DNA of 63,894 bases, the filler included, from Collodictyon triciliatum (Eukaryota): assembly GCA_043381765.1 (NCBI GenBank). It is 3 parts of 3 records of this genome, joined end to end, with 100 filler letters (N's around TTAATTAATTAA, not from the genome) between each part and the next. Parts side by side here need not be neighbours in the genome. Positions count along the whole stretch, not along the records: positions 1 to 21,269 come from JBHJMP010001194.1; 2 more parts are not named here. One strand, given 5' to 3'. Made by a program: the position numbers and the translations under genes. Positions 1 to 43,360 of the stretch are shown piece after piece (the stretch's first letter is position 1; each line of letters opens with the position of its first letter). The notes under the pieces were generated by a model. That model worked only from the letters and a program-made list of their open reading frames with translations, was not told the origin of the DNA and searched no databases.

Positions 1-146
1 CAGCTCGCTATCACTGATTTCTTTCCGGTGCTAGCCTCTCCACGGTAGTGTCTTCTCCTACTCGCGTTTGCTCTCTCCCATGCGCTCCCATCCCGCCCCA
101 TTGTATGGCATAACCTCGCTACACTTTGAATCGAATAAAGGAAAAA
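1..146 (+). mobile_element. 3' end of L1/Tx1-like non-LTR retrotransposon (copy 1, runs off window start)
   Basis: Near-identical to the 3' ends of copies at 8705-9122, 42703-43360 and 55531-56017; ends ...actttgaatcgaataaagg plus A tract. Confidence 0.85.
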
Positions 147-345
147 TTAAGGATCGCGCCAGTCCTCTAACGTTCATCCTGTAGTTTTTAACCGAGCACC
201 AGGTTTAATTTGGTATTAATTCCATTTATTACTTACTAGAAAGGGTATAGCAATCTTTCGATTGGTAAACCCAGTGCGCTAGTATCCAAGGTCTCACCAC
301 TTTTTTCACAAAGATTGTGTAATGGTGAAGACTTTCAGGAAAGAC
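147..345 (-). ncRNA. Putative Fanzor omegaRNA scaffold / element right end
   Basis: Lies directly 3' of the Fanzor ORF on the minus strand. Nested stems (plus coordinates): tactag 234-239/ctagta 279-284 enclosing gggt/accc and caatc 251-255/gattg 260-264 (GAAA loop on the minus strand); tcacca 294-299/tggtga 323-328 enclosing cacaa/ttgtg; terminal agga/tcct stem at 150-166. Confidence 0.6.
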
Positions 346-2237
346 CTAACAGCCTGTTTTTTTAGGGAAGGTGTATGCATATTTTGAAGGATAAAAGAAC
401 TTTCTTGAGTATATTTTTATGCTGTTAGAGTCCCTTGTCAAGAATACACTTTGTTTGCTTTCTGAGCGGCTGCATTCTTTACATATGAGACATCTATACA
501 TTTTTTTGTGTTTCCTTTCGGTGTCATATATTCCAGATCTTTTTCGCAGATACAGCACATCTTGGAGGTTCTTAATTCATATACACTAACTGTTTCAAAA
601 CGTTTGGATGGGATTTTTCGTAATCCTCTTCGGATTGTTGGCATAAAATGTTTCATCTGACATTTTCTGCTCCGGTCTCCATACGCCAGTACAACATCCT
701 TGTGAAATGTCTTTTCGATTCGGTCCAAAAACAATTGTTCACTACTTTTTGTATTAACATACTGTCTCTATACCATCTTTCGAAAAGTTACGCGTTCATA
801 AAATCTGGATAAATCTACCTGGTATCATGGTTTCATAGAGATACATATTTTCGATTTTTTTCATAATCGACCGTGCATGAGTTATGTTTACTCAGTCCTG
901 TCTCTTAATCGATTAAAAATACTCTTGATACCTCAAACCGCTGATTCACTTCAAAAGTCATGGGATCAAAAGAAACATCACTTTGTAAATATGTTTCCAT
1001 GCATATCCCTAAACATCGTACTTCTTTTTTCACGCGCAAAAGTATTTTGTGATTTTTAAGAGATTTGCTATCATGTCTTGTTTGGTGTGCCGTGTAGCGT
1101 ATTTCTTACCTGTCTCATCCACCATGTAAACCATATTAAACTTTCCTGCGTCCACTTCTACTATTTTTTTTGTCGCTAATAAAGATAACTGCTCATCGGA
1201 AAGCTCATATATAAACATATTCTTGGTTCTTTTAGTTTATTTGAATTTTGAATTTGAAAAACCTTTCTTTTCAAACAATAATGACACCGCCAAGCCGTCT
1301 GCTTGTATCGTGTATTTAAAATTGTAGTCTCTTTGACCAAAATCCTCTTCTTCATTTCAAAGAACTTTTCCCTTAGAGTCTCTTTGCATCCTGATATATT
1401 CTTCATTAATGATTTTTTTCTAGTTGATACTAATAGACCTATCAAACATGCAGTATCTAGAGTTATATGACATCGTATATTGTTAGCTCTTGTAGAGATT
1501 GGTTGTAACAGTTTGGCTCTAATGTCCTCAAAAATGCGATTCATGTAAATCAGACATGGAATGCACTTGTTTGGGTTGACTTTGATGTCATATTCGATAC
1601 TTTTTACAATATCTCTGGGAATGATACGATTCAAATGTATTTTAGCCCTTCTTGATATTGTTACGGAATGTCGAGTTTCTTGAAGATGACTTCTTTTTTA
1701 ACTTTCGTAACTGTGCCTTTTTTAATAGCTTCCGTAATATTCTCATCTTTAGGAACTGTTTGATTTATAAAACGCAGGAACCTTTTTACATGATGCTCCT
1801 TAATGTTACTATGATGAGCTGTGAACATTTGCTTTGCCTAGTACGGTAATACATGAGACAGTCCAACCAACGGGGAGCGTTCTTCTTGGGACAAAAGGAA
1901 TCGAAAATCATAGAGATAAACAGTCATCATGTCTTAGCTCATTTCTGTTCTTTTAATTTTGCAGGTCTATATTGTGAAACAATTCCGACTGTCTTTAAAG
2001 CGTACGAAAAAAAACAAAAAACATTTGATTGATTGTTGGGAGTTGTGATTTCAATATGTAACATCTTGCAAACAAATAAGTGTCGGTAACCAAATTATGA
2101 TACAATAAAACCGAATCGTTGATTTTGTCATAGCCATCCGCATTCTTTACAATCGACTTTAGAGATGTTTTCACATTTCGATATTCTGGTTTTACAGACT
2201 TTAGATTCTCAGACTCAAGACGTTATATTTTCTTCAT
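346..2237 (-). pseudogene. Fanzor1 (TnpB/Cas12-related RNA-guided endonuclease), frameshifted and stop-interrupted
   Basis: Stitched minus-strand frames give YRNVKTSLKSIVK...KINDSV...VTDTYLFARCYIL, YDIKVNPNK..LIYMN, HITLDT, YNFKYTIQADGLAVSLLF (~1275-1330), RuvC-I VEVDAGK, YGDRS, RuvC-II VSVYELRTSKMCCIC, CLICKEC and RuvC-III LTRDSNS. Motif order matches Fanzor1 proteins of eukaryotes and giant viruses. Confidence 0.85.
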
Positions 2238-2945
2238 CTGAAAGTCTTTGTTTTACTTTTCCTTTAGAAATCCACCGAGTTCTCAATTTAATAAAACTTT
2301 AGACAATCAGTCAATTTAAATAAAAAAAAAAACTGCACAAAATCAATTCAGGTAAAATTAAGCATCTACCGAGACTTTCAAAATGTGTGCATTGTGGAAA
2401 ATAAACACACCAAGCTTTTTTTTACAGATGATTTGAGACAAAACGCTGAGAGCCGATTCGGCGAGTTCAAATGGGCGGCCGTATAGCCATTGCGACTGAA
2501 AGTCAACATATCAGCCGCAGACAACATGATTACCGCCGCAAGTGTGGATAATATGCTTTTTTAATATGCATGTTTGGTGGCAATTTATAGGGTGGGCTCT
2601 GTCTGGGCCAAGACAAGGGCTTGTTTGTCATTTTTTGAATTATTACAGGAATGGAAAATAAAATATAAATTGATTATAGGAATGTAATGAGATTTTTTAA
2701 GTATCTTTAACCTTATCATATACTGATTATACTATTATATTATTCAGGTTGTTTCTTGGATTCATCAAAGCTCCTGCTTTTGTCAAACCAGATTTAATTT
2801 GATGGTTGTCTGTGCAATAAACTGTTATATATATGGGTACACTTTTGTTGTATGAAAAGTGTTGTGTATTGAAAGGGATAAAACCAAGTTCGTCACAACC
2901 TTTGTAATAAAGTTAATCCATTTACTGGCTGAATGAGACCGAAGG

Positions 2946-3030
2946 AAAGAAAAAGAAAAAGAAAAAGAAAAAGAAAAAGAAAAAGAAAAAGAAAAAGAAA
3001 AAGAAAAAGAAAAGTAAAAGTAAAAAGAAA
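2946..3030. repeat. (GAAAAA)n microsatellite
   Basis: Direct reading. Confidence 0.95.
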
Positions 3031-8613: not shown

Positions 8614-8704
8614 TTTAGGGACTTTTCTCAGGAACACATCATTATTTTGTTCATAAAGTGTTAAATGCACAAAACAAGGAGCCTTCAAGAAGAAACATTT
8701 GCTA

Positions 8705-9122
8705 GGGAACATGTCCTGTGGTTCTTATGGAGTGTGCGTGCATTCTCTCGCTCTAATGATTCGCCCGAACGAGAAATCAATGTATCCAGGCTGGAAAGTC
8801 TCGCAGATTACAGCTTCCTGAACGGCCTGCTGAAACACGCCCGCATTCTTCGCTACTCTGACCGCAAGCGAAGAGTGATTTGGGAGTGTGTCGTGCGATA
8901 TCTCCCACAGCACATCCAACCCCTGCTACCCACGCAACCAATCAATCAGTTGGGACGCCCACCTGACCAACTCGCTATCACTGACTTCTTTCCAGTGCTA
9001 CCTCTCCAGTAGTGTCTTCTCCTACTCGCGTTCACTCTACGTTACGCACCTATTCCGTTCCCTTTGTTGGTATAACCCTGATACGCTTTTAATCAAATAA
9101 AGGAAAGAAAAAGAAAAAGAAA
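8705..9122 (+). mobile_element. 5'-truncated LINE copy with degenerate 18-bp TSD
   Basis: Encodes LWFLWSVRAF..NDSPEREINVSRLESL...DRKRR shared with other copies; flanked by aagaagaaacatttgcta (8687-8704) and aagaggaaacattcacta (9123-9140), 15/18 identical. Confidence 0.85.
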
Positions 9123-9371: not shown

Positions 9372-11244
9372 CTAAAGCCTAGGCAAGGATACGAACCCAA
9401 GCTCACTCTCTCGGAGAAGTTTGGATGCATGGTTGTACATCTCCTTCTTCAGCGCACCCAGCGTAACTCGGTTAACAGCTTTGGTTGAAATCTTCTCTCC
9501 TAGTTCCAAGCACTGAATGATTTGAAGTAAAAATAAAAAAAAAAGAGAAGAGAATCAGTTTTTTTTCAGTTTCTCAGCACTGGGTTGGACGTAAACATAG
9601 CAAGGGCAAAAAAGCTGTGAAGTCTAGTTAGAAAAAGGGACAGAAGGCGATTCGAGAACAAAAAAAAAAAAAAAAAAGTTTCACAAAAGGAGCCACCTTG
9701 ACCAGCAATTCTCCGAGCGGATATACACCGTCAATTAATTTATTCCCAAGAAGCTCTTTTGCGCCATATTTTTGGCCAAGGAGAATCGAATCTCTCAAAA
9801 CTGGCTGCGGCATCTTTGCACTGTTATAAAATGACTTCAGTTGGAATATATTTCAGATAGTATTACATATGCCTTTTACAATAATTTAACGATAAGATAA
9901 AATAACATAACAGAATAAAAATAAAAGGTTGGTAGAAAAATGTGAATTGTATCATTATAGCTTTTGAATTGAGTTTTTTTTTCTCCTATACTGTCCCTCA
10001 TATTAATTTGAAAAATATGTACAAGGACGGAATTTTATGCTTGAAACACTTTATATAATTACGCATAAGAAGCCGTATGACATTACTACCTTATAAGGGC
10101 CATCATTCCAGGAGTGACTTGATATGAGATTACAAAGATAAGTAATATGCTTATGCTCAAATATTCCAGTAAAAAAAACACTTACACATATTTAAATAAA
10201 TACTTGGAAAAATACAGCAAAAAATCTTACGTGGTGCATTTATGTCAATTTCTGGAAGGCAAAAAAAACCTCTATCTTCTCTCATGAAACCTAGGAAGAG
10301 TGCATTTACATATGTATATATTTTCTGTAGTTTTGGTGGATAGGTGATTAAAAGTAAACAACAAAAACAACAAAAACAACAAAAACAACAAAAACAACAA
10401 AAACAACAAAAACAACAACAATAACATAAAATAAAAGTGACAGAGAACGTGTGCGGACCATTTTGTATGCACAAACGAAATATTTGGATGAAAAAATAAC
10501 CCCCCGATTACATCTTCATCCTAGCAGTCATATAGTTCAAACGTGTATATATGAATACAATTCAAAAGAGAGAAAGACTCACGAAAATCACATGCCAGTG
10601 CTAGCATGGCACCTCCAGCGTATACGTGGCCGTTTATCGCTGCAATCGTGAGAACGGGAAGTGTCAGGACGCGATTGAGGAGATGATGGAACCCACGAAA
10701 AAATGACTCAGATTTCTCAATATTTTCAGACAGCCACGCCAAGTCCAATCCATTAGAAAAGAATTTGTCTTCGCCGGTGATGATGAGAGCTGCGGCTCCT
10801 TCAGACCTGGGGTTGCGTATGATTTTTGCAGAAAATGAATTGAATGGGGGTGTTCTTCGTTAAAATGGCACTATGCGTGCTAAAGAGCTCATGAATGTAA
10901 AAATATCCTGCGAAAAGGAAGTTACTGAGATAGGAAAAGATTAATAGGGGAAATCAGACGAAAATTTTAATGCGATGGTCATGTATGATTTACTTCTCAA
11001 CTTCGTCCAATGCAGTATTGAATTGATGAATAAACTCTTCGTTAAACCGATTCTCCCCATCTATAGCCAATGGAAAATAAAGCCAGATGAAGAGTCATGC
11101 AGGCCCTACTCACATGTTCGAAATCGCCCTTGTGTGTGTTTTCTGGCAAAGCCAACATCATATAAGTAGTACTATGGGATACTTGCCTCGCATCTGGAGG
11201 ATGAAGACGTCGTGCTTCCGTCCTATGTAGATCTTCCCTTTCAT
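9372..11244 (-). CDS. Enoyl-CoA delta isomerase (crotonase fold), probably peroxisomal, multi-exon
   Basis: Exons MKGKIYIGRKHDVFILQMR, DGENRFNEEF...ALDEVE, KFFSNGLDL...PVLTIAAINGHVYAGGAMLALACDF, MREDRGFFCLPEIDI and KYGAKELL...LIDGV; ends ...SLPRL* (PTS1-like). Confidence 0.88.
10358..10422. repeat. (CAAAAACAA)n intronic repeat
   Basis: Direct reading; lies within an intron of the isomerase gene. Confidence 0.9.
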
Positions 11245-14661: not shown

Positions 14662-17600
14662 ATGAGAACATTTCTTCATATTACCTTATCTTTCATGTAC
14701 ATAATCTGTAGTTGAATATGTTTCGAATCAACTAATTTCTAATTATCAAAGGGCTGGTGATTTCTGGAATGATTTCACTGTCCCGATGCCAAGATGAATC
14801 GATATTTACCATCGGTGGTCACACTAATTGGGTAAATGTTGTCGTTGTAACCCCAGACGGCTCAAAGATAGTATCTGGAAGTGATGATTATTCAATCAAA
14901 ATATGGACACTGCCACATGGAAGGCTCATGCGTACCTTGACGGGGCATACCTCTTTTGTTGGATGTCTTGCTATCGCCCCTGATGGGGCTAAAGTAGTCT
15001 CAGGAAGCAGTGATGACACAATAAAAATTTGGAATCTAAATGACGGTAAATCAACACGTACACTAACCGGCCATTCCGAGAGAGTCAACAGCGTAGCCAT
15101 ATCTCCGGATGGTTCAAAAATTGTATCAGGAAGTAGTGATTATACAGTGCGGATTTGGAATGCATATGATGGTCGTTTAATTGATACTTTCTATGGCCAT
15201 TCCACCTATGTGATGAGTGTGACTATAACTCCAGATGGCACCAAAGTTGTATCAGGGGGTTCATATGATTATAGCATAAAAATATGGAACCTATCGAGTG
15301 GGTATCTCATTCGTTCATTGATCGGTCACAATTATGTTGTAACCAGTCTCGCTGTTACACCCGATGGATTAAAGATTGTTTCAGGCAGTTGGGATCGATC
15401 AATCAAGGTTTGGAATTTGCATGATGGAACACTTGTAACCACATGGAATGCTCACACAAACTTTATTACAAGCATTTGCCTTACATACGACGGATCAAAA
15501 ATTATTTCGGGGAGCAATGACCAAAAGATTAAGATATGGAATGCAACAGATGGTAAACTCATTCTTACACTTACTGGCCATTCAAAAAACATAAGGAGTG
15601 TCCACGTTAGTCCCGATGAATCAAAAATTGTGTCTGGAAGTGAGGACAAGACAATTATTTTATGGGACTTTGACAAAGGAGTTTATATTCGCTCCTTAAT
15701 TGGTCACAGTGGAGATGTTAATAGTGTCGCTGTTACCCCTGATAATAGAAATATTGTTAGCGGAAGTAGCGATGGGACAATCAAGATTTGGGATATGTAC
15801 AATGGAACTCTTGTTAGATCCTTGGTAGGTCATACATACATGGTTCTTTGTATTCAATTAACTACTGATGGTGAGAAAGTGATATCTGGAAGTTATGATA
15901 ACACGGTTAAAATATGGGATATCAACAAAGGTGCTTTAATTTTGACATTAAATGGACACGGAGATAGCGTAAATAGTATAGCAATCACACCTGATAACAA
16001 AAAGATAGTATCTGGAAGCTCTGATAATACGATAATAGTATGGAATCTCTACGATGGAGCGATAATTAATTCGTGGACTGGGCATTCTGATGGTGTATAC
16101 GCGCTTGTATTAAATCTAGATGGAACAAAAATCATTTCAGGTGGCGGAGACTCTATCATAAAAATTTGGTACCTTGATGATGGAAGACTTTTCAGTACCC
16201 TTATAGATCACTCTGCTTCAGTGAACTGCATTGCAGTTTCTCCAGATGGGAGGTTCATTACATCTGGAAGTAGTGATAGTACCATAAAAGTATGGGATAT
16301 ATCCAACAACATTTTGATATACACTTTAGCCGGTCATTACAGCCCTGTGACTGCTGTCGATATTACTCCAGATGGGACATACATTGTATCTGCAAGCAAA
16401 GATAGCTACATCAAGGTGTGGGACCTTCATATTCAATCTCTTGTTCATACATTTGGTGGACATGTCGGTTCTGTATATGGAGTCGTGGTAAATCCTGATA
16501 GTACTAAAATTGTCTCTGGAGGTGGCGATTTCAACATAAAATACTGGAGTATCTATGAAGGCATGCTTACTAGGACAATAACCGGGCATAACGCACGTAT
16601 ACGGTATGCTTCTATTATCCCTGATGGGTCTGAAGTTGCATCATGCGGGTCGGACAATCAAGTTAAATTTTGGAATTTTCGCACTGGATTACTGGTCCGT
16701 AATATCATGAGTGAATGTGAATTCGTCAGAGCCATATCTTTTTCACCAGATGGTTTTGAAATATATACAGGATGCGAAAATGGCATCGTCGCTATCTATA
16801 ACTACTCTGATGGCACCCCTCTTAAAAAATTAAATGCTCACAATTCAGGGGTAAATGATATCAAAATCACAAAAGATGGGGAAATGCTTTTATCAGGGGG
16901 TCAGGATGGCTTTGTCAGGGTTTGGAACCGCACTGACCTATCCTTGATCAGAGCTACCCAATTTCTTGATGGAAGTATAAACTGCATTAGCGTTGCATCA
17001 AATAACAATACAGTTGTGTCAGGAGGCTATCAGTACATTCACGTTTGGAATATATCTAATGGTGATATGATTCATGTGCTAAAAGGACATTCCTTGTGGA
17101 TTAATTCAGTCTGCATTACTCCAGATAACTCAAAAATTGTTTCGGGTAGTAGCGACAATACTATAAAAATATGGAATTTTTATGATGGGAAAATCATATT
17201 TTCCATATCAGGCCACACAGATAGTGTTCAGAGTGTGATAGTTTCATCTGATGGTTTGAGGATTGTTTCTGGGAGCAGCGACCGAACTATAAAAGTTTGG
17301 AACCTAAGTAATGGTTTTTTGGAAAGAACTTTGGCTGGCCATACTGATTGGGTCACTAGTGTTTCTCTCTCTTCAGACGGAACAAAGTTAGTATCTGCCA
17401 GTTATGACAAGACGATAAAATATTGGAATTTGTGCGCAGGAGGGTATTATTTCGATAGTGTAAAAAGCAAATGTGAAATATGTCCAACAGGAACATATAA
17501 TAACATGAATGATGTTGCATCTTGCTCACAGTGTATCCCCGGAACTTTTAATTCCAAGAATGGCTCTCTAAGTGAGGCCGATTGTTTTCCGTGCGAGAGT

Positions 17601-20168
17601 GGTTCATACAATGCCTTTAATGCGCAATCATTTTGTAGTAAATGCTTTCCAGGAACATACAACCCCAGCCGTTTATCGAGCTCTCCTTACAACTCATGCG
17701 CACACTGTTTACCAGGAAGCTATTCAGATGATTTTGGTGCAAGTTCATGTCAATTATGCCCTGCAGGAACTTACAATTCATACGAGAGGTCAGTATCGAA
17801 TTCTTCATGTCTTGAGTGCGAACCTGGTACATATAATGCGGCTGATGGACAGTCGGGGTGTGTAGATTCCAAGCCGGGGTTCTTTTCACCTGATGGAGGA
17901 GGGGTATTTTCTATACCTTGTAATCCAGGCACATTTACAAATAAATCAAAGGCGATTTTTTGTGAATCATGTCCAGTCGGTACTTATAACTCAAAAGTTG
18001 GATCTAAGTCTTCAAATGATTGTATTCCCTGTAATCCAGGATATTATTCACCGAATCCTGAACAATACTCTTGTAGTATGTGCGGCCCTGGTGAATATAA
18101 CCAAGATTTTGGGAGGCAAAACTGCACAAAGTGCCCAATTGGTAGCTACAATCCATACTACGGTGCAATTTCTCTTCAAAATTGCACTGAATGCCCAGCT
18201 GGCACCTATACAAATGATGTAAACACAGGGTGTATTTCATGTCCTGCCGGTACATACAATAATAAAACAAGTGCCTTTTCAAAAAAATCGTGCATTTTAT
18301 GCTCCAAAGGTACCTATAGTCCAGAAAGAAGTTCAAATTGCAATTCTTGCCCATCTCGTTCGACCACATCATATGAAGGTTCCCGTAAAATAGAAGACTG
18401 CACTTGTATTGAGACCTATACAAAACATAACGGCTTTTGCACATGCACACCTGGATTTTTTGAGGATGGCAATAAATGTGAGAAGTGCGCCGTAGGCAGT
18501 TATAAACCGTCCAACGACACTAGTTTGTGTATATCTTGTCCAGATAAGTATACAACTAATTCTACTGGCTCCGTGTCGATCAATGAGTGCATTTGTAGCC
18601 AAGGATATACTTCGATTGGAGATTCTTGTGAATGTGGCCCAGGAACATATATAGATGCAAATGGGAAATGTGTAAAATGCCCTGCGGACACTTATAATTT
18701 TGATTTCGGGCAAAATGCTTGTACCACCTGTCCAGAGGGATTTGTTTGCCAAGGAAGTAATGAATTAAAGGTAAAACCTGGATATTGGCAAGCTCCAAGT
18801 TCTGATGGAAAATATGTATCTTTCAAATGCCCAAACGCAGAGGCGTGTACAGGTGGAAACAATACATGTGCCGAAGGATACAAAGGTCCTCTTTGCAGTG
18901 TTTGCGAGGATGGATACGGTGCTGCTAATATTTATTGTATCAAATGTCCATCCCAGGGAACCAATTTTGTATTGGTATTGATGAGCATTATCATACCATT
19001 ATCTTTCATTATGTATATGATAGAGCAATCAAGGCAACCAAGAACAGAAAATATTCAAGTTCTTAAGACACTCGCAAACCATTTTCAGATTCTCCTGTAC
19101 CTCTCAAATTTCGATGTTGAATGGACTTTGGGATTGGTAACAACAATGAAAATTCCTGCAGTCTTTTCTTTTTCTCTGACTATCGACAGCTATCCTATGG
19201 AGTGCCAGTTCAATTTATCCTTTTACGATAAAATCTTTTACTCAATGGCGACTCCATTGATTTTGATGGGTACAGTTTTTTTTATTCTTACAATGAAGCT
19301 CTCCTACAAGACTTACTCTGGGGAAATAGATAGTTTAAAGTCGAATTACCGAGCATACATGCAAGAATTTGTATATTCTATGGTTGTAATGCTATTTTTC
19401 GTGCATCCAACAATAACAGCAGCTATATCGAATATATTCTCCTGTGAACCCATGGGCGATAAAAACTACTTAAGGTATGACATGTCAGTAATGTGCGACG
19501 ATTCAGGCTATTTATTGTGGAAAAGAAGAGTTCTGATCTACCTAGTAATGTATTGTTTTACCGCTCCTTTTTTACTCTTGGCACACCTTATTCAAAAGAG
19601 GCAAAAACTAAGGAATACTGAGTCTCGAACATACAATCTGTTGAGGTTTTTGGTGGATGGATATACCGAAAAATGCTTTTTCTGGGAATTTGTCTTGATG
19701 ATTCATAAACTGCTGATCGTCATCATTAGTGTTTTTCTTTCTGCATCCTTGCAAATGTACTTCGGCTTGTGGACCATTTTCTTAGTTATTGCTTCAACAA
19801 ACCATTTCAAGCCTTTTGTCTCTATCGTTCTACAAAAGTATCATATGAGGTCGCTCCTCGTCCTCTACTTCACATTGATGTTGAGTTTGGTTTTCAGATT
19901 CTCAAAAATGGATAAATCCACTGAAACCAGTTTGGTTCTCATTATTATAATCTTGAATGCCGCAATAGGAATCAACTTGATAGGCGTCGCTGGCCCTTCA
20001 ATGCTGAAAAGCTTTTTCGTCAAAATAGTTCAATTTATTGATATCGCCATGTGGTACCTATCTAATACAACATTTGCTCACTATATCTCTTTGCAGTGGG
20101 ACAATAAAATGAGGAGAAAGCATATTAACCTCCAAGAAAACAGCTATGTAGAACACTCTCCTGAATAA
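14662..20168 (+). CDS. Large membrane protein: putative signal peptide, 21 WD40 repeats, Cys-rich GCC2/GCC3/TNFR-like repeats, multi-pass (~7 TM) C-terminus
   Basis: Uninterrupted 1803-codon ORF at 14757-20168. 21 GH...WD/WN units (~14817-17430), many CxxCPxGTYN units (~17430-18950), CAEGYKGPLCSVC, then hydrophobic helices with KTLANHFQI, YLRYDMSVMC and GYTEKCFFWE. A likely short hydrophobic first exon starts at ATG 14662 (MRTFLHITLSFMYII); this is inferred. Confidence 0.88.
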
Positions 20169-21851: not shown

Positions 21852-23980
21852 GATCAATGAGCAGTATGACTCCTCTCCAAAGTTTTGCAGCGCCTTGAAA
21901 AAAGGGTCATTCAATTGCACCTTCATGATGCCCCTCGCTGAAAATCAAACTACGCTTGACTTTACATATGTAATTCCAAAGAAAGGAATGTACTATTTTA
22001 TAATCGAAAATTGTAATGAGCAAGAATTTAAGGTCAAGGTAGATTATTTCTTTCGATAAAAAACAAATTAACCGCATATGTTTTCTCTCGATGCATCCTG
22101 AATATGTCAAAATTTCACCACATTCTACGAAATATAGAGATTATCTTAAGGGGCTCTATTTTTTTATAATTATTATTGTATCAAAAAGATACAAACTATG
22201 CATTTTTTATATTAACTACTAATAACTCTATCAACTCCACTGGTTCATTTTTTAGATGGACTATGTAATGCTAAATCCTGGTGGCGAGCATCTCGGATAC
22301 GGACACATACCGCTTCCTTCCACTCTCCAAGCTCTTTTGATCATATGGTTGATAGTCTCTATTCTTTGGGTCGCAAACTGGCTATTCCACATACGGGTAA
22401 GAAACTAACTGCACCTGGACTCACTGCTCCTTCGAGCAAATCGCTTTCTTCATTAACATATTTCCATAATGTTTGGGTCAGCAGATGAACTAAATTAATT
22501 AACAATTACTGCATTTGCTGTTTCTGTTCCGGGTAGCATCCCGTAAAACTACACTTTTTGATATCGACAGTCCCATTTTCAAAGATAGTTTGCTTTTATG
22601 AATCGTACATCTACTGGTCATATCTATCCGAGTATGGTACGATTTTTTCCAAAAAAAAGAGAAAGAATTAAGANNNNNNNNNNNNNNNNNNNNNNNNNNN
22701 NNNNNNNNNNNNNNNNNNNNNNNNNNNNNNNNNNNNNNNNNNNNNNNNNNNNNNNNNNNNNNNNNNNNNNNNNNNNNNNNNNNNNNNNNNNNNNNNNNNN
22801 NNNNNNNNNNNNNNNNNNNNNNNNNNNNNNNNNNNNNNNNNNNNNNNNNNNNNNNNNNNNNNNNNNNNNNNNNNNNNNNNNNNNNNNNNNNNNNNNNNNN
22901 NNNNNNNNNNNNNNNNNNNNNNNNNNNNNNNNNNNNNNNNNNNNNNNNNNNNNNNNNNNNNNNNNNNNNNNNNNNNNNNNNNNNNNNNNNNNNNNNNNNN
23001 NNNNNNNNNNNNNNNNNNNNNNNNNNNNNNNNNNNNNNNNNNNNNNNNNNNNNNNNNNNNNNNNNNNNNNNNNNNNNNNNNNNNNNNNNNNNNNNNNNNN
23101 NNNNNNNNNNNNNNNNNNNNNNNNNNNNNNNNNNNNNNNNNNNNNNNNNNNNNNNNNNNNNNNNNNNNNNNNNNNNNNNNNNNNNNNNNNNNNNNNNNNN
23201 NNNNNNNNNNNNNNNNNNNNNNNNNNNNNNNNNNNNNNNNNNNNNNNNNNNNNNNNNNNNNNNNNNNNNNNNNNNNNNNNNNNNNNNNNNNNNNNNNNNN
23301 NNNNNNNNNNNNNNNNNNNNNNNNNNNNNNNNNNNNNNNNNNNNNNNNNNNNNNNNNNNNNNNNNNNNNNNNNNNNNNNNNNNNNNNNNNNNNNNNNNNN
23401 NNNNNNNNNNNNNNNNNNNNNNNNNNNNNNNNNNNNNNNNNNNNNNNNNNNNNNNNNNNNNNNNNNNNNNNNNNNNNNNNNNNNNNNNNNNNNNNNNNNN
23501 NNNAAAAAAAGCTATTTCCTCATTATACACATATTAAATTAGAGAGAACAGGAGTATCTGCGCAGCTATAACTACGAAGGACCCTCCGATTCACTGCGAA
23601 GAAAAATAAATGTGATGAGGTACATTCATAATAATATTACCCGGTTCAACTCTCGTAAACATCGAGCAAGTTTGACATCATAATATTTCATCCAAGAATC
23701 GGTGTCGGAGCGAACCTGGTTTAACTTATTAACGCTGTAGATCATTTCAAACTGGTGTAATGCTTTACATCTTTGTCGATATCATGGTAATTTTATCCAT
23801 TCACATAACAATGGACCTCAGTTGTATATCTCTCCTGCATCATTCTGTCAATGCATAATTGTGGTATCTGTTCTAATATACAGGTGAACATAATTTCTGT
23901 GTTTTTCCTCTATAAATACTACTGGATTCAAGTGTTGGTTGAGGAAATTTCGCTTTTGCTTCTTTTCCTTCGAATAGCGT
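21852..23980 (+). CDS. GPR107/GPR108/TMEM87 (lung 7-TM/GOST) family protein, partial, interrupted by gaps
   Basis: Exons ...FTYVIPKKGMYYFIIENC... and MDYVMLNPGGEHLGYGHIPLPSTLQALLIIWLIVSILWVANW, then later LRRKINVM and YKYYWIQVLVEEISLLLLF. Ends are uncertain. Confidence 0.65.
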
Positions 23981-25526
23981 ACGTTTCTAATCAGCAAATG
24001 AAATCGACGGAAAAACTAATTATAATTTACTCTCTTCTTTATTTCCTTACCCGTTCTCTCTGAAAAGAATACCGATTATGCACATGTGTAATCTCGTGCA
24101 TACGGCACATCGCTTTATTGGTGCGCGCAATCTCACATTTTTTTCTCCTTCTTTTCCTAACACATTTGCGCAATAAGTATCCATTTCCGCCTGCAAAACT
24201 TCAGCGAATACCAAAACCAAAATATTCCAAACATTCTCGCCAATCTGTCAGGAGACTTGCCGGTAACGCTTTATCCAGCTCTCTTGAAACCTTATGTCAT
24301 TCACACTGTTGTTTATTTTTCATCAATATCGCTTCTGGATTATGGCCGGTTATTTTCTCCGATAATCGAAGATTTTATTCCANNNNNNNNNNNNNNNNNN
24401 NNNNNNNNNNNNNNNNNNNNNNNNNNNNNNNNNNNNNNNNNNNNNNNNNNNNNNNNNNNNNNNNNNNNNNNNNNNNNNNNNNNNNNNNNNNNNNNNNNNN
24501 NNNNNNNNNNNNNNNNNNNNNNNNNNNNNNNNNNNNNNNNNNNNNNNNNNNNNNNNNNNNNNNNNNNNNNNNNNNNNNNNNNNNNNNNNNNNNNNNNNNN
24601 NNNNNNNNNNNNNNNNNNNNNNNNNNNNNNNNNNNNNNNNNNNNNNNNNNNNNNNNNNNNNNNNNNNNNNNNNNNNNNNNNNNNNNNNNNNNNNNNNNNN
24701 NNNNNNNNNNNNNNNNNNNNNNNNNNNNNNNNNNNNNNNNNNNNNNNNNNNNNNNNNNNNNNNNNNNNNNNNNNNNNNNNNNNNNNNNNNNNNNNNNNNN
24801 NNNNNNNNNNNNNNNNNNNNNNNNNNNNNNNNNNNNNNNNNNNNNNNNNNNNNNNNNNNNNNNNNNNNNNNNNNNNNNNNNNNNNNNNNNNNNNNNNNNN
24901 NNNNNNNNNNNNNNNNNNNNNNNNNNNNNNNNNNNNNNNNNNNNNNNNNNACTCCGACAGACACATTTGTAACCACTTTTTTCTTTTCTTCTCTACTTAT
25001 GTTCCTTTCTATGAAAGAATTCGACGCATCTCACCCTCTTTAGATAACGTTATATCCTCTCTCTCTCCATTTGAGAAAGCTGACCCAATCTATTCGTATA
25101 CATCGATGAATCCAACCTTCATTCTTGCAATTATTATTTTTCGTTTTCGGAACACAATATGAGTTGACGAAAACGAAAACGAAAGAGAAAAAAAAATTAC
25201 AAGGATATGGGAATTCTCACCTCAACTTCATCCAACATATCAAATTACCCTTCCTTCCGCTTTTTGCTTAACACCAACAGATAAATAAATAAAGTCAGTA
25301 TGGCTACACCTGGGGAAAATAGGAAGCACAAAGTATTCTATGCGAAAGCAGCACTCAAGACGACGATGAGTGTCCGAACGCAAAGCTTGTAGATTCCTTT
25401 CTCCTTTATTCCAAGCAAAACAACTCCCGCCTTTATCCCAGCAAACAGAGGGACTCGCACATCCAGGTCTCGTCAGAAGAAAAGAAAGAAGGAAGAAAGA
25501 AAGAGAAAAAAAAATATGAGTGGATT

Positions 25527-27905
25527 CTACTGGCCGAGCGCCGCCTTCAAAGAACCATCGGCCGCCATCTCCTCGACAATGTCCACGCCGCCAATGAGCT
25601 CGCCCTCGTGGTAGAGCTGAGGATACGTGGGCCAGTTGCTGTATTCCTTGAGTCCTTGCCTCACGTCCTCGTCCAGCAGAATGTCAAATGTCCCAAACAC
25701 AACCCCGCTTGCGTGGAGAATATCCACAATCTTGCGGGAGAACTTGCACTGCGGCCGCTCAGCAGAGCCCTTCATAAAGAGCATCGTTGGCTGCGACGTG
25801 ACAAGCGCTCTCAGTCGCGCCTCCAGCTGTGCTTTTGCGTGGGCTGTCGTGGCCTCTGCAGGAATCAGGCCGAGAAGCTCGCCGGTCTCGTGGAGTTCCT
25901 TGGTGATGTCCACGCCCCCGACCAGTTCGCCCTTCACATAGAGCTGCGGGTATGTGGGCCAGTTGCTGAATGTGCGCAGCCCTTCTCGCACTTGGTTGTC
26001 AGAGAGGATGTCAAAGAATCCAAACTTGATGCCGTTCTTGTCCAGGAGGTCTACAATCTGTCGGCTGAATCCGCATCTGTAGTTGTGAGGCACAATGAGA
26101 ATCGCTGATAATAATAAAAAAAAAGAAAAGAAAAGAAAAGAAAAGAAAAAAAAGACAGTATGGATAAAATAATCAAAATGTATATAAGAGGAAGAGAACC
26201 AGAAACGTAATATCACACCAGCAAAATCTAATTGATACGGTTGGAAATAGCATCATAGTAACAAACTTTGGTGCCTGCGGCTCTCCCTTCATAAACAGCA
26301 TCACAGGCTCTCTGTTGACCAATTGTTCCAGGCGGGCATTCAAGGCTTTCAAAGCCGCCTCTGGGTCTGTGGGTGCAGAAGGATGGGAAGAAGACGGTTC
26401 TGTGGCTGGAATGGGCTCGGTATTGAACTTGGTCACTTTTTGGGCTAGTTGTGCAGGATTGACGCCTTCCACTTTGTCAAGCACACGGCCTCTCTGTAGT
26501 TTTGTGGATACAAACAAACAAAAACAAAGCATACCGCCGTGAATATGGCTATAATGTGGTGAAAAAAAAGTCATAGAAGTATATCAGAATAAAAAATCAG
26601 AATAAGAAAATCAGAATAAAAACAGAATATAAAAACAGAATATAAAAACAGAATATAAAAACAGAATATAAAAACAGAATATAAAAACAGAATATAAAAA
26701 CAGAATATAAAACAGAATATAAAAACAGAATATAAAAACAGAATATAAAAACAGAATATAAAAAAAGAATATAAAAAANNNNNNNNNNNNNNNNNNNNNN
26801 NNNNNNNNNNNNNNNNNNNNNNNNNNNNNNNNNNNNNNNNNNNNNNNNNNNNNNNNNNNNNNNNNNNNNNNNNNNNNNNNNNNNNNNNNNNNNNNNNNNN
26901 NNNNNNNNNNNNNNNNNNNNNNNNNNNNNNNNNNNNNNNNNNNNNNNNNNNNNNNNNNNNNNNNNNNNNNNNNNNNNNNNNNNNNNNNNNNNNNNNNNNN
27001 NNNNNNNNNNNNNNNNNNNNNNNNNNNNNNNNNNNNNNNNNNNNNNNNNNNNNNNNNNNNNNNNNNNNNNNNNNNNNNNNNNNNNAAAAGAATAAAAAAA
27101 GAATAAAAAAGAATAAAAAAATCAGAATAAAAAAATCAGAATAAAAAAATCAGAATAAAAAAATCAGAATAAAAAAATCAGAATAAAAAAAATCAGAAAA
27201 AAAATCAGAATAAAAAAAATCAGAATAAAAAAATCAGAATAAAAAAATCAGAATAAAAAAAATCAGAATAAAAAAAATCAGAATAAAAAAATCAGAATAA
27301 AAAAAATCAGAATAAAAAAAATCAGAATAAAAAAACTGATATTATATTTATCTATATAGTTAGATAAATATAATATCAAAAACAGAATATAACAATTTTA
27401 AAAACATAATAAAAGATAAAATGTAAGTTAATTAAACGTGAGAATAGAAAAAACAGAGAAGATAAGACATCCACCATCTCGCGCAAACTGAAAAGAATAA
27501 ATACAAAGAATTAAAATCATAAAAACTATGAAAAATGAAAAAAAAAACCATATTACCAAGAGGAAGAGAACAGTAGGTACAGACTCGACGCCATACTTAT
27601 CCGTGGCTTCCGAGACCGATTCGCTGTTAACCTAGACAGTTAGACACCCAAAGGCAAGGTTAGATAGTAAAGATCGACCCAAAAGCAGGGCCCAAAGCAA
27701 CCAGGAGTGAGAAACATGGAATGGTAAGTCTGACCTGAGCAAAGACCAGGTTCTGATTGGACGGAAGCAGAGCAGTCAGCAGTTGCGAGACCGAGCGGCA
27801 GGGAGAAGCCCAGTCGGCTGCAAAGAGCGCAACAACAATATTTGGTCTCGTGATGAGCGCTGCAAACTCTGCGGCGCTGTTGACGACTTCGAGGGCCTGA
27901 CTCAT
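25527..27905 (-). CDS. GLRX3: Multidomain monothiol glutaredoxin (thioredoxin-like + 2 Grx domains; GRX3/PICOT type)
   Basis: FAADWASPC Trx domain, [24 protein letters not shown]...[10 protein letters not shown], and a second Grx domain [16 protein letters not shown]...[10 protein letters not shown]. Confidence 0.93.
26583..27335. repeat. Intronic minisatellites (AAAAACAGAATAT)n and (AAAAAATCAGAAT)n spanning a gap
   Basis: Direct reading; inside a glutaredoxin intron. Confidence 0.9.
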
Positions 27906-35900: not shown

Positions 35901-38900
35901 CTGAAAATGGTTCAGGAGAAAAATAAGTAATAATTATGCCAATTTTGTCTATTTTAATTATAAAATCAAAATTAAAATAATTTGAATCGAATTAAAAATT
36001 TGATATTAAATTATATATTGTAGGGACGAGATGTTTGTCTTCCTCATCGATGCCATCAACCAAATCCACCCATCGCAAGGAACGCCAGCTCCGCATCTGC
36101 TGACCTGGTTGCCCAAAGAAACGCCACCTAATGTTGCGATGGTTGTGTCGACCATTCATACCCATGAATCTTGCACGGTATTCATCATTTATTTAAGTTT
36201 TGGATATGTTTATTTTCTGCATAAAATTGATTTGAGTGGATCTTTATTAAATGTACCTGTCATAAGTCTGCCAAGCAAAGTGGACTGGAGCCGATTTCTG
36301 TCGCCAAGTTGACCGAGGGCGAAATTAAGGACGGTGTCGAATCATTCCTCATCCGCTATGACAAGACCCTGAACGAAAAGCAAGTTGGAATGATTCTGGC
36401 TGACTTTGAATATACTGGTGAGACATTTGTTAAAAGAGTGTATATTTTGATTCCTTTTTTAGTTGTATGATTTAGTTATTCATTATCTGATATTTCTATA
36501 GGCCATCCACTTTATCTCCGCATCATTCTGGATGAGGTCAGGATCTTTGGCGTCTATGAGAAGATTGATGAAGAACTGTTTGTGCTGCTTTCTACGGATG
36601 GTGTCATTGAGCTTTACACTCTCATTATCAAGCGCTGGCAACTGAAGTTTGACAGGAAAGGTGAGTATTGGTTTCATATTTCACAAAAAAAAAAAAGCAA
36701 TATAATTGAAACTTTTATTGATCGATACTTTTTCAGTGGCCTCATCTGATGGAAAAGAGACAATGAAGGTCGAGTATGTCTCTCTCTCGATGAAGGTTCT
36801 GTTTGTCTCTCGTATTGGTTTGAGTGAAGGTGACTTGGACAAGTACATGAAAGATGCGATTGGCACAGGATTCGAGCTTGCTGAGTGGTTTGCTTACTCT
36901 TGAATATTAATAGAATTAAAAGGTTTGCCCTTTTCTTTTCTTTTTTATTTGACTTATCTTTTATCCATTCAAATAGGAAATCCTTCTTCTTTACCCTTAT
37001 CGAGTCGCTTTTCGTCCGCAATGGAAGGTTAGTGTCAATATTCAGTCTTTTTGATTCATTAATATGTTTTTCTGTTATAATTCTATGTTGGATAAAAGCC
37101 TTAATTACTTATATCAAAGATGCATGTACTTCCACCAGCTGCTGCTGGAGACCTCCCAAAAGGTCTACTTCTCCGAAGAGAAAGAGGTGGAAAAAACGCA
37201 CGAAAAATACGGAAAATGGCTGTTTGGACAGTATTCTGAGGCTGCTGACGCGGATGAGGAGCTTGCTGCTGAGATTTGCTACCAACTTCTGAAGGGCAGT
37301 TTGTTTGACTTGCTTGTCGAATACATGAAGCAAAAACATGTAATTTTTTATTTTTTATTTTTCGATTATTCTTAGTTATAATGAAACGGCATTCACTGAT
37401 TAATTTTAATACTTTATAGGTTATCAGTATCATGCTCGGCGGTCGCTATCGCTACGAGTTCTTTACATGCTGGAGAGCAATCAACGCAAGTGGAGCAGCA
37501 AACTACAAAGATGTTTATGGAAGCTTGGCTAAGGTAATTTATAATTTTTTTAAAAATTTTTGAAGGTTACTACTCACAAATTTAATTATCAATCATGATA
37601 TATCTATTAATTTTTTTTTGTTTTTTTCAGTCTTTGGATAAAGTGGGAGACCTGCTGGTTGGATTTTTCTTGGAGTCTTTTGAGAACTCGTTTTTGTTGT
37701 CTGTACTGAATGTGCGTCTTGGAAAGCATCAGACAGAAGGTATACAATTTGTTATCTTTTTTGATGAATTTATGCAATGAAGATGAGTTGATGTGTGGAC
37801 ATATTGAATAATCTGCGAATTTACAGATGCAAAGGCTGCTGATTACCTGAATCTTGGTCGTGTCTACAAGAATCTCCAAAAGTAAAGAAAAAAGAACAAA
37901 TAAAATTTTGATTATCGATTAATACAAGATTATAAAATATAATGAAAACTTTTCTAAAATAAAAATTAAAAAGCTGGGCGGAGTCCATGGTCTACTACAA
38001 GAAATGCCTCGATGCAGTTGAGAAAAATGAAGATGATTCCCTGGGTATCGCTACCATTCACGAAGAGATGGGAATTATCTACCAACATCAGGATAAGTAA
38101 GTCTCGCTCGCCACTTAAAATATTAAATATAGTTAATGTTACAAAAAAAGGTGTTCTGATATATTATTTACACAGAATTGATGAAGCCCTCCACGAATAC
38201 AAGAAATCCCTGGACTTTAGAATAAAAAAACTGGGCGAAAACGACTTGCAAGTGGCCCAATCGTACGACCGCTTCGGAGACATATATGTGAAACAGTCAA
38301 AGTAACATTTGAATAATTTATATTCGCTGATTTTCTGCTTTTATATTGTAAATTAATTTATGCTGATCAATTTTTTATGATAGGAATGAGCAAGCTCTGG
38401 CTGAATACACAAAGGCCATGAAAATCCGCCAAAAGAAAGTCGGAAACGAGCATCCTCTTGTCGCAACATCGCACCAGAACTATGGTCATGTCTCTCTGGC
38501 TGGGAAAAAGTAGCTTAGTTATTCGATTTAACCTGATTTTAAATATTATCATCATTTTTGAGAAATATTAATATGATTGAATCACAAAGGTATGAAGAGT
38601 CTATTGACAACTACGAAAAAGCGAAAGCAATCCTTGAAAAATCATTGGGAGCCAAGCATGCATCTGTTGCCTCGACAATCCAGTTTATTGCGAACGTTCA
38701 TCTTGCCAGTGGAAAGTTGAAATTTCTAAATTTTAGATATTTGCATACATAATTTTCCTTTCTTTTAATTTTTGCAAAAAGAGTGTGGCTTTATATCTTT
38801 CATTTGTATGGACTCTATTTAGGGTTATATTTTTGATAATAAAATTTAAAGTATTTAATAACCAAAACCATCGTATTATATAGGAAAACTGAGGCCTTAT

Positions 38901-41900: not shown

Positions 41901-42602
41901 GAACCAGTGACGCGATGAACACGATTGACACCAACAGAATCCTAGATGCAAAGACAGTCCAGATTATCGGCCCAAGAAAGCTGCGAGGTGGAAACATCCA
42001 AATCAGAAACGTCATGGGATTGAGTCGATCCAACAAATTCCTCCTACATTCCATCGGTGCTGTTTCCTATGATGCGGACTTTGTTGCCTATTGTGAGCAG
42101 GGTAAGTTCACAAAGTTCCAGGCTCAAATGATGGCTGAGTGTTATGACAATGGATGGGGTGTTGAGAAAGATGCTGAAAAGGCTTTTTATTGGAGATATA
42201 TTGCCTTTCCAAAGTTATCATTAGATTTTGATGGATTGAAGCAACTAGCACAACAAGGCTCAAACGAGGGATTCAATGTTTTGAAAGACATGGCTGAAAT
42301 AAAGAATAGATGGGAAGAATACAAATATCCACAAGCTGTTTCTATTGTTGCTGAATGCTATGAGAATGGATGGGGTGTTGAGAAGGACTCTTCGTTGTCT
42401 CTTAAATGGGAAATATTCAGTGGAAAGGCTGAAAACTTTGAGAAACTGAAGCAATTTGCGCAACAAGGCTCAATGGGTGCATTCAACGTTTTGAAAGAAA
42501 TGGCTGAAATGAAGGAAGATATCCTGGACCGATGGGGAAACAAAGATGGTGAAAAACACAAATATATACATGCTGTATCAATCGTTGCCGAGTGCTACGA
42601 AA
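32927..42602 (+). CDS. NLR-like STAND NTPase: calponin-homology - DUF4062 - NACHT/AAA_16 - TPR array - pentapeptide - 13xWD40 - Sel1-like; 3' end truncated by contig end
   Basis: CH: VLEWVNHHL...NIRDDFTDGFYLAILI. DUF4062: IRVFLSSTLRDIQQERD...IDLRWG...CPYFVCSLGARYGWIP. Walker A: AESGIGKSSLMA. Walker B: FVFLIDAINQI. KLC-type TPRs (LGEKHADYATSLENVG), pentapeptides (ANLSNSILDGANLTDANLSG), WD40 at 40067-41821, and AECYENGWGVEKD repeats. The exon junctions I checked join in frame. Confidence 0.9.
40067..41821 (+). repeat. 13 tandem 135-bp coding repeats (45-aa WD40 units)
   Basis: Consensus GHxxxVxSVCSIQGPNGEKWLASGSxDxTIRIWDVATGNQIKTLE; nucleotide blocks such as acaatacgtatttgggat recur at 135-nt period. 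Confidence 0.95.
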
Positions 42603-42702
42603 NNNNNNNNNNNNNNNNNNNNNNNNNNNNNNNNNNNNNNNNNNNNTTAATTAATTAANNNNNNNNNNNNNNNNNNNNNNNNNNNNNNNNNNNNNNNNNN
42701 NN
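42603..42702. other. Artificial contig linker N44-TTAATTAATTAA-N44
   Basis: Same as 21270-21369. Confidence 0.95.
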
Positions 42703-43360
42703 GTGGATAGGTGCGCGTGTAGTCCATGCAGCAACGACCTCCCCAGAATGCACCATGTGCCATAGTGGAGATGACTCTATCGAACACACATTTGTGAAGT
42801 GTTCTCTGACTCAAAAGTGACAGAATCTAACCCACAAGATGCTCTCTGAGCTTGATTATGCTCCCAACCGACTCAGCGCGTCTGACACCCTGTTTGGCCC
42901 ACAATACCAAATGACCCACGACTCTAGAATACTCTGGACAGTCACAAGGGGACATACGCTGTGGTTCTTATGGAGTGTGCGTGCATTCATCCGCTCCGAT
43001 GATTCACCCGAACGAGAAATCGATGTATCGAGGCTGGAGAGCCTCATGCGATACAGCTTCCTGAACAGTCTGCTGAAACACACCCGAATTCTTCACTACT
43101 CTGACCGCAAGCGAAGAGAGATGTGAGAATGTGCCGTGCGATATCTCTCAATATATCCAACCCCTACTACCCGCACAATCATTCAACCAGCTGGGTCGCT
43201 CGCTTGACCAACTCGCTATGACTGATTTCATTACAGTGCTAGCCTCTTCACAGAAGCGTCTTCTTCTACTCACGTTTGCTCTCTCCCACGCACACCTATC
43301 TCGCCCCTTTGTATGGCGCAACCTCGCTACACTTTGAATCGAATAAAGGAAAAAAAAAAT
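42703..43360 (+). mobile_element. LINE (L1/Tx1-type) ORF2 C-terminus and 3' UTR, degraded
   Basis: CTMCHSGDDSIEHTFVKC is a C-x2-C-x8-H-x4-C zinc knuckle typical of the ORF2 end after RT. It is followed by the shared LWFLWSVR segment, stops, and gaatcgaataaagg-poly(A). Confidence 0.88.

Follow-up and report, generated by a model that had tools for sequence, protein, structure and literature searches.

Fanzor1 proteins are eukaryotic and giant-virus relatives of TnpB and Cas12, and they act as RNA-guided RuvC endonucleases. In the OMEGA systems of IS200/IS605 and IS607 elements, TnpB is a RuvC nuclease that works with an omegaRNA, a guide RNA from the right end of the transposon. Fanzor1 and TnpB systems have this logic in common, although the latter are prokaryotic and shorter. 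Fanzor1 genes, pseudogenes and omegaRNAs, together with their links to giant viruses and mariner-type transposons, are already in print in the portions of the literature used here (PMC3627910, PMC10432273, PMC10530073). In the portion of Bao & Jurka 2013 (PMC3627910) that we draw on, the Fanzor1 motif is given as D-X(125,275)-[TS]-[TS]-X-X-[C4 zinc finger]-X(5,50)-RD, and Fanzor1 elements borne by Tc1/mariner transposons of giant viruses are represented by PGv-1 and PUl-type elements. The excerpted text of Saito et al. 2023 (PMC10432273) describes the Spu-1 ghost loci of Spizellomyces punctatus, which are without the ORF, keep both inverted repeats, are numerous and are active.

The window analyzed here is the whole stretch of 63,894 nucleotides (filler included) from the genome of Collodictyon triciliatum. 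Most probably, it holds a solitary dead Fanzor1 gene (2237..306) with a remnant of an omegaRNA scaffold (356..234), both on the minus strand and descended from a mobile element. The pseudogene was delimited by tblastn and by a frameshift-aware alignment to P0001, an intact metagenomic protein of 648 aa with which it aligns end to end. Searching the window with P0001 by tblastn returned seven segments in three frames, covering aa 1-643 (E 3e-153), and the read-through of the window is identical to P0001 at 369 of 639 aligned positions (57.7%). Stitched from the minus-strand frames, the reading comprises 646 codons from an ATG at 2237-2235 to a terminal TGA at 308-306. This upholds the earlier note, which had proposed a decayed Fanzor1 gene for a minus-strand protein of ~630 codons.

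A comparison with known Fanzor proteins, which the same note had suggested, was made through P0001 and came out in favor of its assignment. Among PDB entries, P0001 matched the Fanzor1 structures of GtFz1 from Guillardia (9cer; E 2.1e-28), PpFz1 from Parasitella (9cf0; E 2.7e-24) and SpuFz1 from Spizellomyces (8gkh; E 3.7e-23), with no other nuclease family, TnpB included, among its matches at E<=10. The window fragment 767-438 matches PpFz1 by itself (9cf0; E 4.7e-5), and the fragment 1356-1030 by itself had no match in the PDB. Pfam searches of eight window fragments placed no family at or near threshold; for P0001, they gave only a sub-threshold Cas12f1-like_TNB hit (E 0.11), and NCBIfam gave nothing. 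The locus is thus homologous to SpuFz1, GtFz1 and PpFz1, as far as they are covered in the text of PMC10432273 used here and in the three structures, over nearly the full length by way of P0001, although its likeness to the solved proteins is of low identity and is picked up at the HMMER level only. It also differs from them in being a pseudogene.

The catalytic constellation is retained at the positions where the family has it. All three RuvC acidic residues that had been read from the sequence (VDAG, YELRTS and RDSN) fall on columns that are invariant in an alignment of 17 family proteins. The VDAG motif (1155-1144) supplies the RuvC-I aspartate (codon 1150..1152, aligned with D364), YELRTS (581-564) the RuvC-II glutamate (codon 576..578, aligned with E555) and RDSN (435-424) the RuvC-III aspartate (codon 430..432, aligned with D604), all on the minus strand. 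In the PpFz1 alignment, the YELRTS glutamate lies against the E of 'DEFRTS'. The expected zinc-finger motifs were likewise located within a minus-strand C4 region (557..472) that aligns with C562, C565, C587 and C590, each at least 90% conserved in the 17 proteins; its CCIC half (557-546) is parted from its CLICKEC half (492-472) by a frameshift near 509. An I(Q)ADGxxVS motif had also been noted and is present as IQADGLAVS at 1308-1282 (minus strand). The 17-protein alignment shows no variation at T312 and D313 ('TDG' motif), and the window has A at T312. The read-through satisfies the published Fanzor1 motif with VDAG, RTSKMCCIC, CLICKEC and TRDSN, and in P0001 numbering the spacing is 194 residues from D364 to T558 and 13 from C590 to R603. 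The D...[TS][TS]xx-C4-...RD constellation is therefore common to the window and to SpuFz1, GtFz1 and PpFz1. The locus contains no open frame encoding a nuclease, and its membership in Fanzor1 is by descent only.

The frameshift-aware alignment to P0001 places eight frameshifts near 2030, 1947, 1648, 1337, 1104, 841, 509 and 405, and there are eight premature stops, at 2225, 1936, 1840, 1663, 1239, 907, 827 and 770. With this number of lesions, the window copy cannot make the protein. The premature stops lie opposite K, A, L, E, L, L, R and W of P0001 and include all three kinds of stop codon, and a recoded stop codon was rejected on that ground. Seven of the eight frameshifts run in the same direction and one is situated within a T-run, a pattern that homopolymer errors can give. 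Nevertheless, it is scarcely credible that the gene is intact and that its lesions are assembly errors or reflect an unusual genetic code. Eight in-frame stops of three kinds facing differing residues argue against it, as do the ORFs of 1810 and 1127 codons that are open under the standard code in the same window. The long end branch of the window copy (0.76, vs 0.12 for P0001) points the same way.

In the phylogenetic tree, which included no Fanzor2 or TnpB sequences, the window, P0001 and P0004 were grouped with a support of 100, and this group is sister (support 97) to a clade of giant-virus Fanzor1 genes carried in viral contigs by Tc1/mariner-like transposons with inverted repeats. The sister-clade proteins are 44-47% identical to P0001 in the best aligned segment (loci L001-L010). 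In IMG/VR, relatives were encoded in 262 of 267 pattern matches, and the viral relatives are accompanied by inverted repeats of 31-33 bp and by a DDE_3 plus HTH transposase. A search for relatives based on P0001 only found none in metagenome contigs (184 pattern matches) or in viral contigs (36). Since the nearest available relatives at the DNA level are all in giant-virus contigs, and since the spread of Fanzor1 by viruses has been proposed in the portion of PMC3627910 used here, the relic might lie within an integrated piece of a giant virus and not be a copy of a host transposon. We consider this highly improbable. The surroundings look cellular, being sparse in coding sequence and containing microsatellites and a family of poly(A) repeats, and the ten largest ORFs of the window have no viral hallmark, matching only WD40, Ephrin_rec_like, kinase and, weakly, SLBP. 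In addition, the window lineage falls outside of the viral clade, on a separate long branch (1.04). A transposon copy resident in a eukaryotic genome remains the preferred reading.

At the 3' end of the gene, a structured omegaRNA had been proposed for 345..147. We instead place a predicted omegaRNA-like scaffold remnant at ~356..234 on the minus strand, as indicated by a covariance model (R1) and by folding. It takes in the last ~50 nt of the ORF and continues for ~75 nt beyond the stop. The predicted elements, all on the minus strand, are helix 1 (355-345 with 339-329), helix 2 (328-321 with 301-294), helix 3 (319-315 with 311-307), a closing helix (284-279 with 239-234) and an inner stem (272-260 with 255-243) closed by GAAA at 259-256. 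A 3' omegaRNA that shares part of its sequence with the ORF end, predicted in the case of the window, is a further feature in common with SpuFz1, GtFz1 and PpFz1, although the scaffold sequence of the window is unrelated to theirs where comparable.

Model R1 was built on six omegaRNAs of the giant-virus sister clade, taken from the 3' ends of the genes. These six relatives are conserved over a stretch that opens ~108 nt ahead of the stop and breaks off sharply 48 nt past it, and RNAalifold assigned them 48 pairs, with compensatory changes in 14. When applied to 80 additional viral loci, the model recovers the RNA in 41 of them, at the corresponding position. Over those matches, 33 of the 48 pairs change on both sides, a number reached by none of 500 shuffles. 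In the window, R1 matches 369..225 (minus strand) with 30.8 bits. The E-value is 1.8e-7 when 3 kb are searched and 3.8e-6 for the full window, and both are rough, the model having six similar sequences as its basis (effective number 1.24). The next unrelated match reached 10.3 bits, and no other in the window exceeded 12.9 bits. The alignment is local: 65 model positions, the inverted repeat among them, are skipped, with 38 bases of the window opposite. Some 60 nt of the match lie within the ORF tail, where a weak protein similarity (FTIT vs LTIT) raises the score; however, the match runs beyond the stop codon at 308-306 and is therefore not coding homology alone.

A second model, R2, was restricted to a more distant viral clade (clade 2) and started from helix 2. 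It did not match the locus, its best result in the window being an unrelated 18.3 bits at 36675-36759. R2 recovers five of the six sister-clade RNAs at 28-42 bits, and it leans on the right inverted repeat. A joint MAFFT alignment of both viral clades misaligned the middle of the RNA and gave only nine pairs with RNAalifold, and no model was built from it. Folding of 356..225 gave -37.3 kcal/mol (z -3.13), with none of 200 shuffles as good. The wider segment 420..130 (z -0.99; 28 of 200 shuffles as good) folds no better than shuffles. Scans of the window with Rfam and for tRNAs found nothing.

One may read the miss by R2, the insignificance of the wide fold and a local, partly coding match to a narrow model as signs that there is no omegaRNA remnant here, and that the 3' stems are chance hairpins combined with homology of the coding tail. 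This is unlikely. The R1 match is the sole one in 128 kb of searched strand and sits exactly at the end of the ORF on the right strand. Helix 1 is retained with a different sequence, the 3' strand of helix 2 and the closing helix lie past the stop codon, and the narrow fold is better than all 200 shuffles. Accordingly, we favor 356..234 as the probable remnant of a Fanzor1 omegaRNA scaffold, having the strand and position expected of one. The original RNA claim thus holds only in part: nested stems with a GAAA-capped hairpin (264-251) are indeed predicted within the ~200 nt at 147-345, but 233..147 is unsupported.

The limits that had been proposed for the element are not upheld. The DNA 3' of the scaffold (147..233, minus strand) has no other copy within the window and no supported structure. 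The R1 match ends at 225, membership of this segment in the element is without support, and the apparent pairing of 233..147 in the wide fold extends into the neighboring repeat. That repeat occupies 1..146 on the plus strand, is unrelated to the Fanzor relic and is represented there by its 3' end, which ends in AATAAA and an A-run. Three more copies (55530-56016, 42874-43359 and 8704-9115) are 81-90% alike to 1-146 over the common part and share its end point. The earlier 3' limit of 147 is hence a mere junction with this repeat, and the metagenome contigs described below depart from the window sequence at 141-146. No support was found for the 5' limit of 2361. A direct repeat (134-155/2345-2366; 18 of 22 nt) was not accepted as a target duplication, since 134-146 belongs to the AATAAA/poly(A) repeat, and chance is its likeliest explanation.

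Terminal inverted repeats were not found: when the 3' end was compared with the 1.6 kb upstream of the ATG, the top local scores were 17-20, vs 57-66 in six viral elements. Nor was a transposase remnant found: with the L004 transposase as query, tblastn over the window reached no better than E 0.14, at a site distant from the locus (10626-10871). With neither feature found, the description of the locus as a complete element is unsupported. Compared with the giant-virus elements, the window shares omegaRNA helices 1-3 and the closing helix, yet the viral copies are intact, with a DDE_3 transposase as well as inverted repeats, and the window is without any of these. In the viral elements, the right repeat lies inside the omegaRNA; it was not found in the window, where the ORF ends ~60 nt earlier relative to the RNA. 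We infer that the window and the viral omegaRNA have their 5' helices in common and not the 3' part, which in viral elements also acts as the right inverted repeat.

Contigs from freshwater metagenomes contain pieces of the coding part that are 85-99% alike to the window. These pieces fit a multi-copy family, although their source is freshwater metagenomes and they are not tied to this genome. Three freshwater-metagenome DNA runs share a small part of the window's words (0.06-0.09), and no RNA run is listed with a share. Metagenome reads leave 179-336 and 1917-1995 uncovered, which is evidence neither way.

The existence of related coding pieces, from which other copies probably follow, raises the question of whether the omegaRNA module of this dead gene is still transcribed and serves intact Fanzor1 copies in trans, as the Spizellomyces 'ghost' loci described in the excerpted PMC10432273 would suggest. 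The scaffold still folds (z -3.13), and its R1 score is on a par with that of many intact viral loci of other subclades (20-37 bits). Like the Spu-1 loci, the window has an omegaRNA scaffold, here predicted, without a working nuclease gene beside it. In contrast to them, it retains a dead ORF, no repeats were found, the expected one at the right end included, and no second scaffold copy occurs in the 64 kb window. Moreover, lesions in the ORF number ~1 per 120 nt, so that about one would be expected over a 130-nt stretch, and the good looks of the scaffold prove little. We therefore regard such a guide in trans as quite unlikely. A still more specific scenario is very unlikely: a lineage, resident in eukaryotes, that branched from the mariner-borne Fanzor1 of giant viruses and in which the transposon-end half of the omegaRNA was exchanged, the protein-binding 5' helices were kept, and the scaffold is still transcribed as a 'ghost' guide for intact copies.

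We thus return to a solitary dead gene with a scaffold remnant. By analogy with characterized Fanzor1 systems, the transcript of the 3' end of the gene in the living ancestor would have folded into the scaffold, and this RNA would have included a guide transcribed from the DNA that immediately follows; in the window, the guide would be expected to start just beyond 234. The guide-loaded nuclease would then have cut matching DNA beside a short target-adjacent motif. The relic probably arrived as a mobile element of the Tc1/mariner-like kind found in giant viruses, or descends from one, and neutral decay in a eukaryotic genome would have followed.

The window copy is an ordinary relic and matters little by itself. 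It is a pointer to an undescribed Fanzor1 sublineage that has an intact 648-aa member in P0001 and whose sister is a giant-virus group of great abundance. It also illustrates a guide RNA whose 5' helices persist and whose transposon-end part differs, which bears on the part of the RNA that the protein needs.

The minus strand of the window carries a Fanzor1 gene broken by eight frameshifts and eight premature stops. Its pieces are visible in a stop-to-stop frame listing of positions 1-3000, and a 109-aa query from 767-438 matched a single longer relative, P0001, at 66% identity across 83% of the query. P0001 is a 648-aa protein encoded on a metagenome contig of 2.6 kb. In tblastn against the window, it aligned as seven collinear segments in three frames, covering residues 1-643 and spanning 2237 to 315 (joint E 3e-153), with no match better than E 4 in the rest of the 64 kb. 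A scripted frameshift-aware alignment to P0001 produced a read-through from an ATG at 2237 to a TGA at 308-306, with identities at 369 of 639 aligned positions (57.7%). Frameshifts were placed on the minus strand near 2030, 1947, 1648, 1337, 1104, 841, 509 and 405, the first seven of which run in the same direction, as the loss of one base or the gain of two would. Two bases at 834-837, adjoining the frameshift at 841, are missing from relatives on metagenome contigs.

The premature stops comprise five TAA, two TAG and one TGA codons, and the P0001 residues facing them are K, A, L, E, L, L, R and W. A reassigned stop codon at the locus was ruled out, as all three kinds of stop face differing residues. 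Under the standard code, two long plus-strand ORFs of the window are uninterrupted, one of 1810 codons (14736-20168; WD40 repeats throughout and nine Ephrin_rec_like repeats) and one of 1127 codons (39275-42658; WD40 repeats throughout). Given the mixed stops and these ORFs, the Fanzor1 gene is truly broken. A 33-codon insert at ~1020-922 (minus strand) is common to the window and P0001, absent from giant-virus relatives and less conserved than the remaining gene; in P0004, a protein 78% identical to P0001, similarity is wholly gone exactly where the insert begins. The insert may represent an intron that the gene caller left in the coding sequence, or else a loop specific to this lineage.

Elsewhere, the window holds a plus-strand ORF encoding an entire protein kinase domain (44748-45551; Pkinase 9.7e-43) and a (CTTTTT)n run at about 2945-3000. 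Two regions, 22499-27149 (GC ~0.20-0.32) and 56275-58396 (GC 0.60), stay open over long distances in several or even all of the six reading frames and are therefore probably simple or low-complexity repeats.

Assignment to Fanzor1, as the earlier note had proposed, was upheld through P0001. The window fragments had no Pfam match; a Pfam scan of P0001 returned Cas12f1-like_TNB below threshold (E 0.11) and did not recover PF26935, its precomputed database label. Against solved structures, P0001 matched over most of its length the Fanzor1 proteins of Guillardia theta (9cer; 2.1e-28), Parasitella parasitica (9cf0; 2.7e-24) and Spizellomyces punctatus (8gkh; 3.7e-23), and no other nuclease at E<=10. 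Window fragment 767-438 itself matched the P. parasitica protein at 4.7e-5 across the RuvC-II/zinc-finger stretch, and fragment 1356-1030 alone had no match among solved structures. The latter has 60 relatives at E<=1e-3 among 1.84 billion representatives searched, many of them 600-760 aa long. When P0001 was aligned with 16 of these 60, D364, E555 and D604 proved invariant, and conservation of C562, C565, C587 and C590 was 90% or higher. All seven residues are retained in the window, in agreement with the RuvC acidic residues and zinc-finger cysteines first reported. The read-through also carries the family-defining motif of Bao & Jurka 2013 (PMC3627910). The proposed 'IQADGxxVS' motif corresponds to a conserved 'TDG' block; the otherwise invariant T312 of that block is replaced by A in the window.

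Phylogeny was inferred with a quick, unrooted IQ-TREE run on 52 rows: the window read-through masked with X, P0001 itself, 21 of the 60 representatives (the roughly full-length ones together with P0004 and P0006) and 29 of 74 long viral ORFs, after exclusion of ORFs shorter than 580 aa or at least 92% identical to a retained one. The window, P0001 and P0004 grouped together (support 100) and, in this unrooted tree, were sister to the giant-virus clade L001-L010 (support 97). Both clades and a second, larger viral clade were nested in a 35-row group (support 95). The terminal branch of the window measured 0.76 versus 0.12 for P0001, a length that fits neutral decay. In three freshwater-metagenome DNA runs, short contigs correspond to coding sequence within 337-1870; their likeness to the window ranges from under 90% to over 99%, and indels occur close to some of its frameshift sites. 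Such contigs are consistent with a multi-copy family carried by a freshwater eukaryote, which need not be C. triciliatum.

Relative loci were fetched with A3, a closer alignment (four metagenome and eight IMG/VR loci). The family abounds in giant-virus contigs: relatives of fragment 767-438 were encoded in 262 of 267 IMG/VR pattern matches, the best 80 of which were retained. Among the 90 loci where tblastn located the gene, 74 have an ORF reaching 580 aa or more. Six non-identical loci of the nearest group have terminal inverted repeats of 31-33 bp (local alignment scores 57-66). Gene listing and domain scan of one viral element, L004, gave a 634-aa Fanzor1, a 346-aa transposase (DDE_3 and HTH) on the opposite strand and, between the two, a 69-aa ORF (2740-2949, plus strand). 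This Tc1/mariner-type arrangement is known for giant-virus Fanzor1 elements (PMC3627910). The small ORF has a basic tail and no Pfam match, and an alignment of the upstream regions of six loci showed it conserved at the matching place in L001, L003, L006, L008 and L010; a conserved ~50-nt stretch follows it in giant-virus elements, immediately before the Fanzor1 ATG. L003 (element 380-2654) and L010 (2156-4899) have their left inverted repeat only ~320 nt and ~840 nt, respectively, upstream of that ATG, compared with ~1370 nt in the other four loci; these two copies therefore lack the complete transposase gene and look non-autonomous. Unlike these elements, the window locus has no inverted repeats (scores 17-20) and no transposase remnant nearby, so that its description as a complete element was not sustained.

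In the six nearest viral loci, a stretch from ~108 nt before the stop codon to 48 nt beyond it is conserved, and conservation stops abruptly at GGTGTAAA. RNAalifold predicted 48 pairs in this stretch, 14 of them with compensatory changes, and the L001 RNA folded with a z of -7.1. A covariance model of the stretch, R1, recovered the RNA in 41 of another 80 viral loci, in every case directly after the matched protein region. On these matches both sides had changed in 33 of the 48 pairs, above all 500 shuffles and all slid controls, in an alignment that was fitted to R1 and so favours the structure.

With filters off, R1 matched the window at 369..225 on the minus strand with 30.8 bits (E 1.8e-7 over 3 kb, 3.8e-6 over the whole window); the sole other match above 10.3 bits was on the overlapping opposite strand (12.9 bits). 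The match includes helix 1, which is kept although its sequence differs, the very similar helices 2 and 3, and the closing helix. In place of the 65 intervening model positions, which include the right inverted repeat, the window has 38 bases that make their own stem capped by a GAAA loop. Since the window's stop codon falls in helix 3, the 3' strand of helix 2 and all that follows are non-coding there, whereas the same stretch is coding in the giant-virus relatives, which argues for conservation of the scaffold at the RNA level. Positions 356..225 fold at -37.3 kcal/mol (z -3.13; 0 of 200 shuffles as stable). The structured omegaRNA of the earlier note thus stands in part: the R1 match and this fold speak for it, but the wider stretch originally proposed folds no better than chance (z -0.99), and the locus is missed by R2, a second covariance model built from the more distant viral clade only and from helix 2 onward only. 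The top R2 match in the window was an unrelated, AT-rich one (18.3 bits). R2 recovered five of six sister-clade RNAs at 28-42 bits and also matched, weakly and partially, the left inverted repeats of that clade, which suggests that it recognises these RNAs largely via the shared inverted repeat. As the window lacks that repeat, we take its RNA to be homologous to the 5' scaffold alone.

Neither of the limits proposed for the element, 147 and 2361, was supported. Position 147 is the junction with the end of an unrelated repeat (1-146; AATAAA and an A-run), the metagenome contigs diverge from the window at 141-146, and a 22-nt flanking direct repeat lies partly inside the unrelated repeat; for 2361 no support was found. 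The unrelated repeat belongs to a family at least ~490 bp long, with three further copies at 55530-56016, 42874-43359 and 8704-9115; all share one orientation and terminate in AATAAAGG and an A-run, an ending that resembles the 3' end of poly(A) retroposons. By homology, the scaffold ends near 234, and 233-147 belongs to no assigned part.

The initial observation was largely right and its interpretation partly so. PMC10432273, PMC3627910 and PMC10530073 describe Fanzor1 in fungi, protists, arthropods, plants and giant viruses, its capture by Mariner and other transposons, guide RNAs overlapping the right inverted repeat, partial gene copies, and 'ghost' guide loci without protein. The C. triciliatum locus is a previously undescribed, dead Fanzor1 copy of an already described sort.
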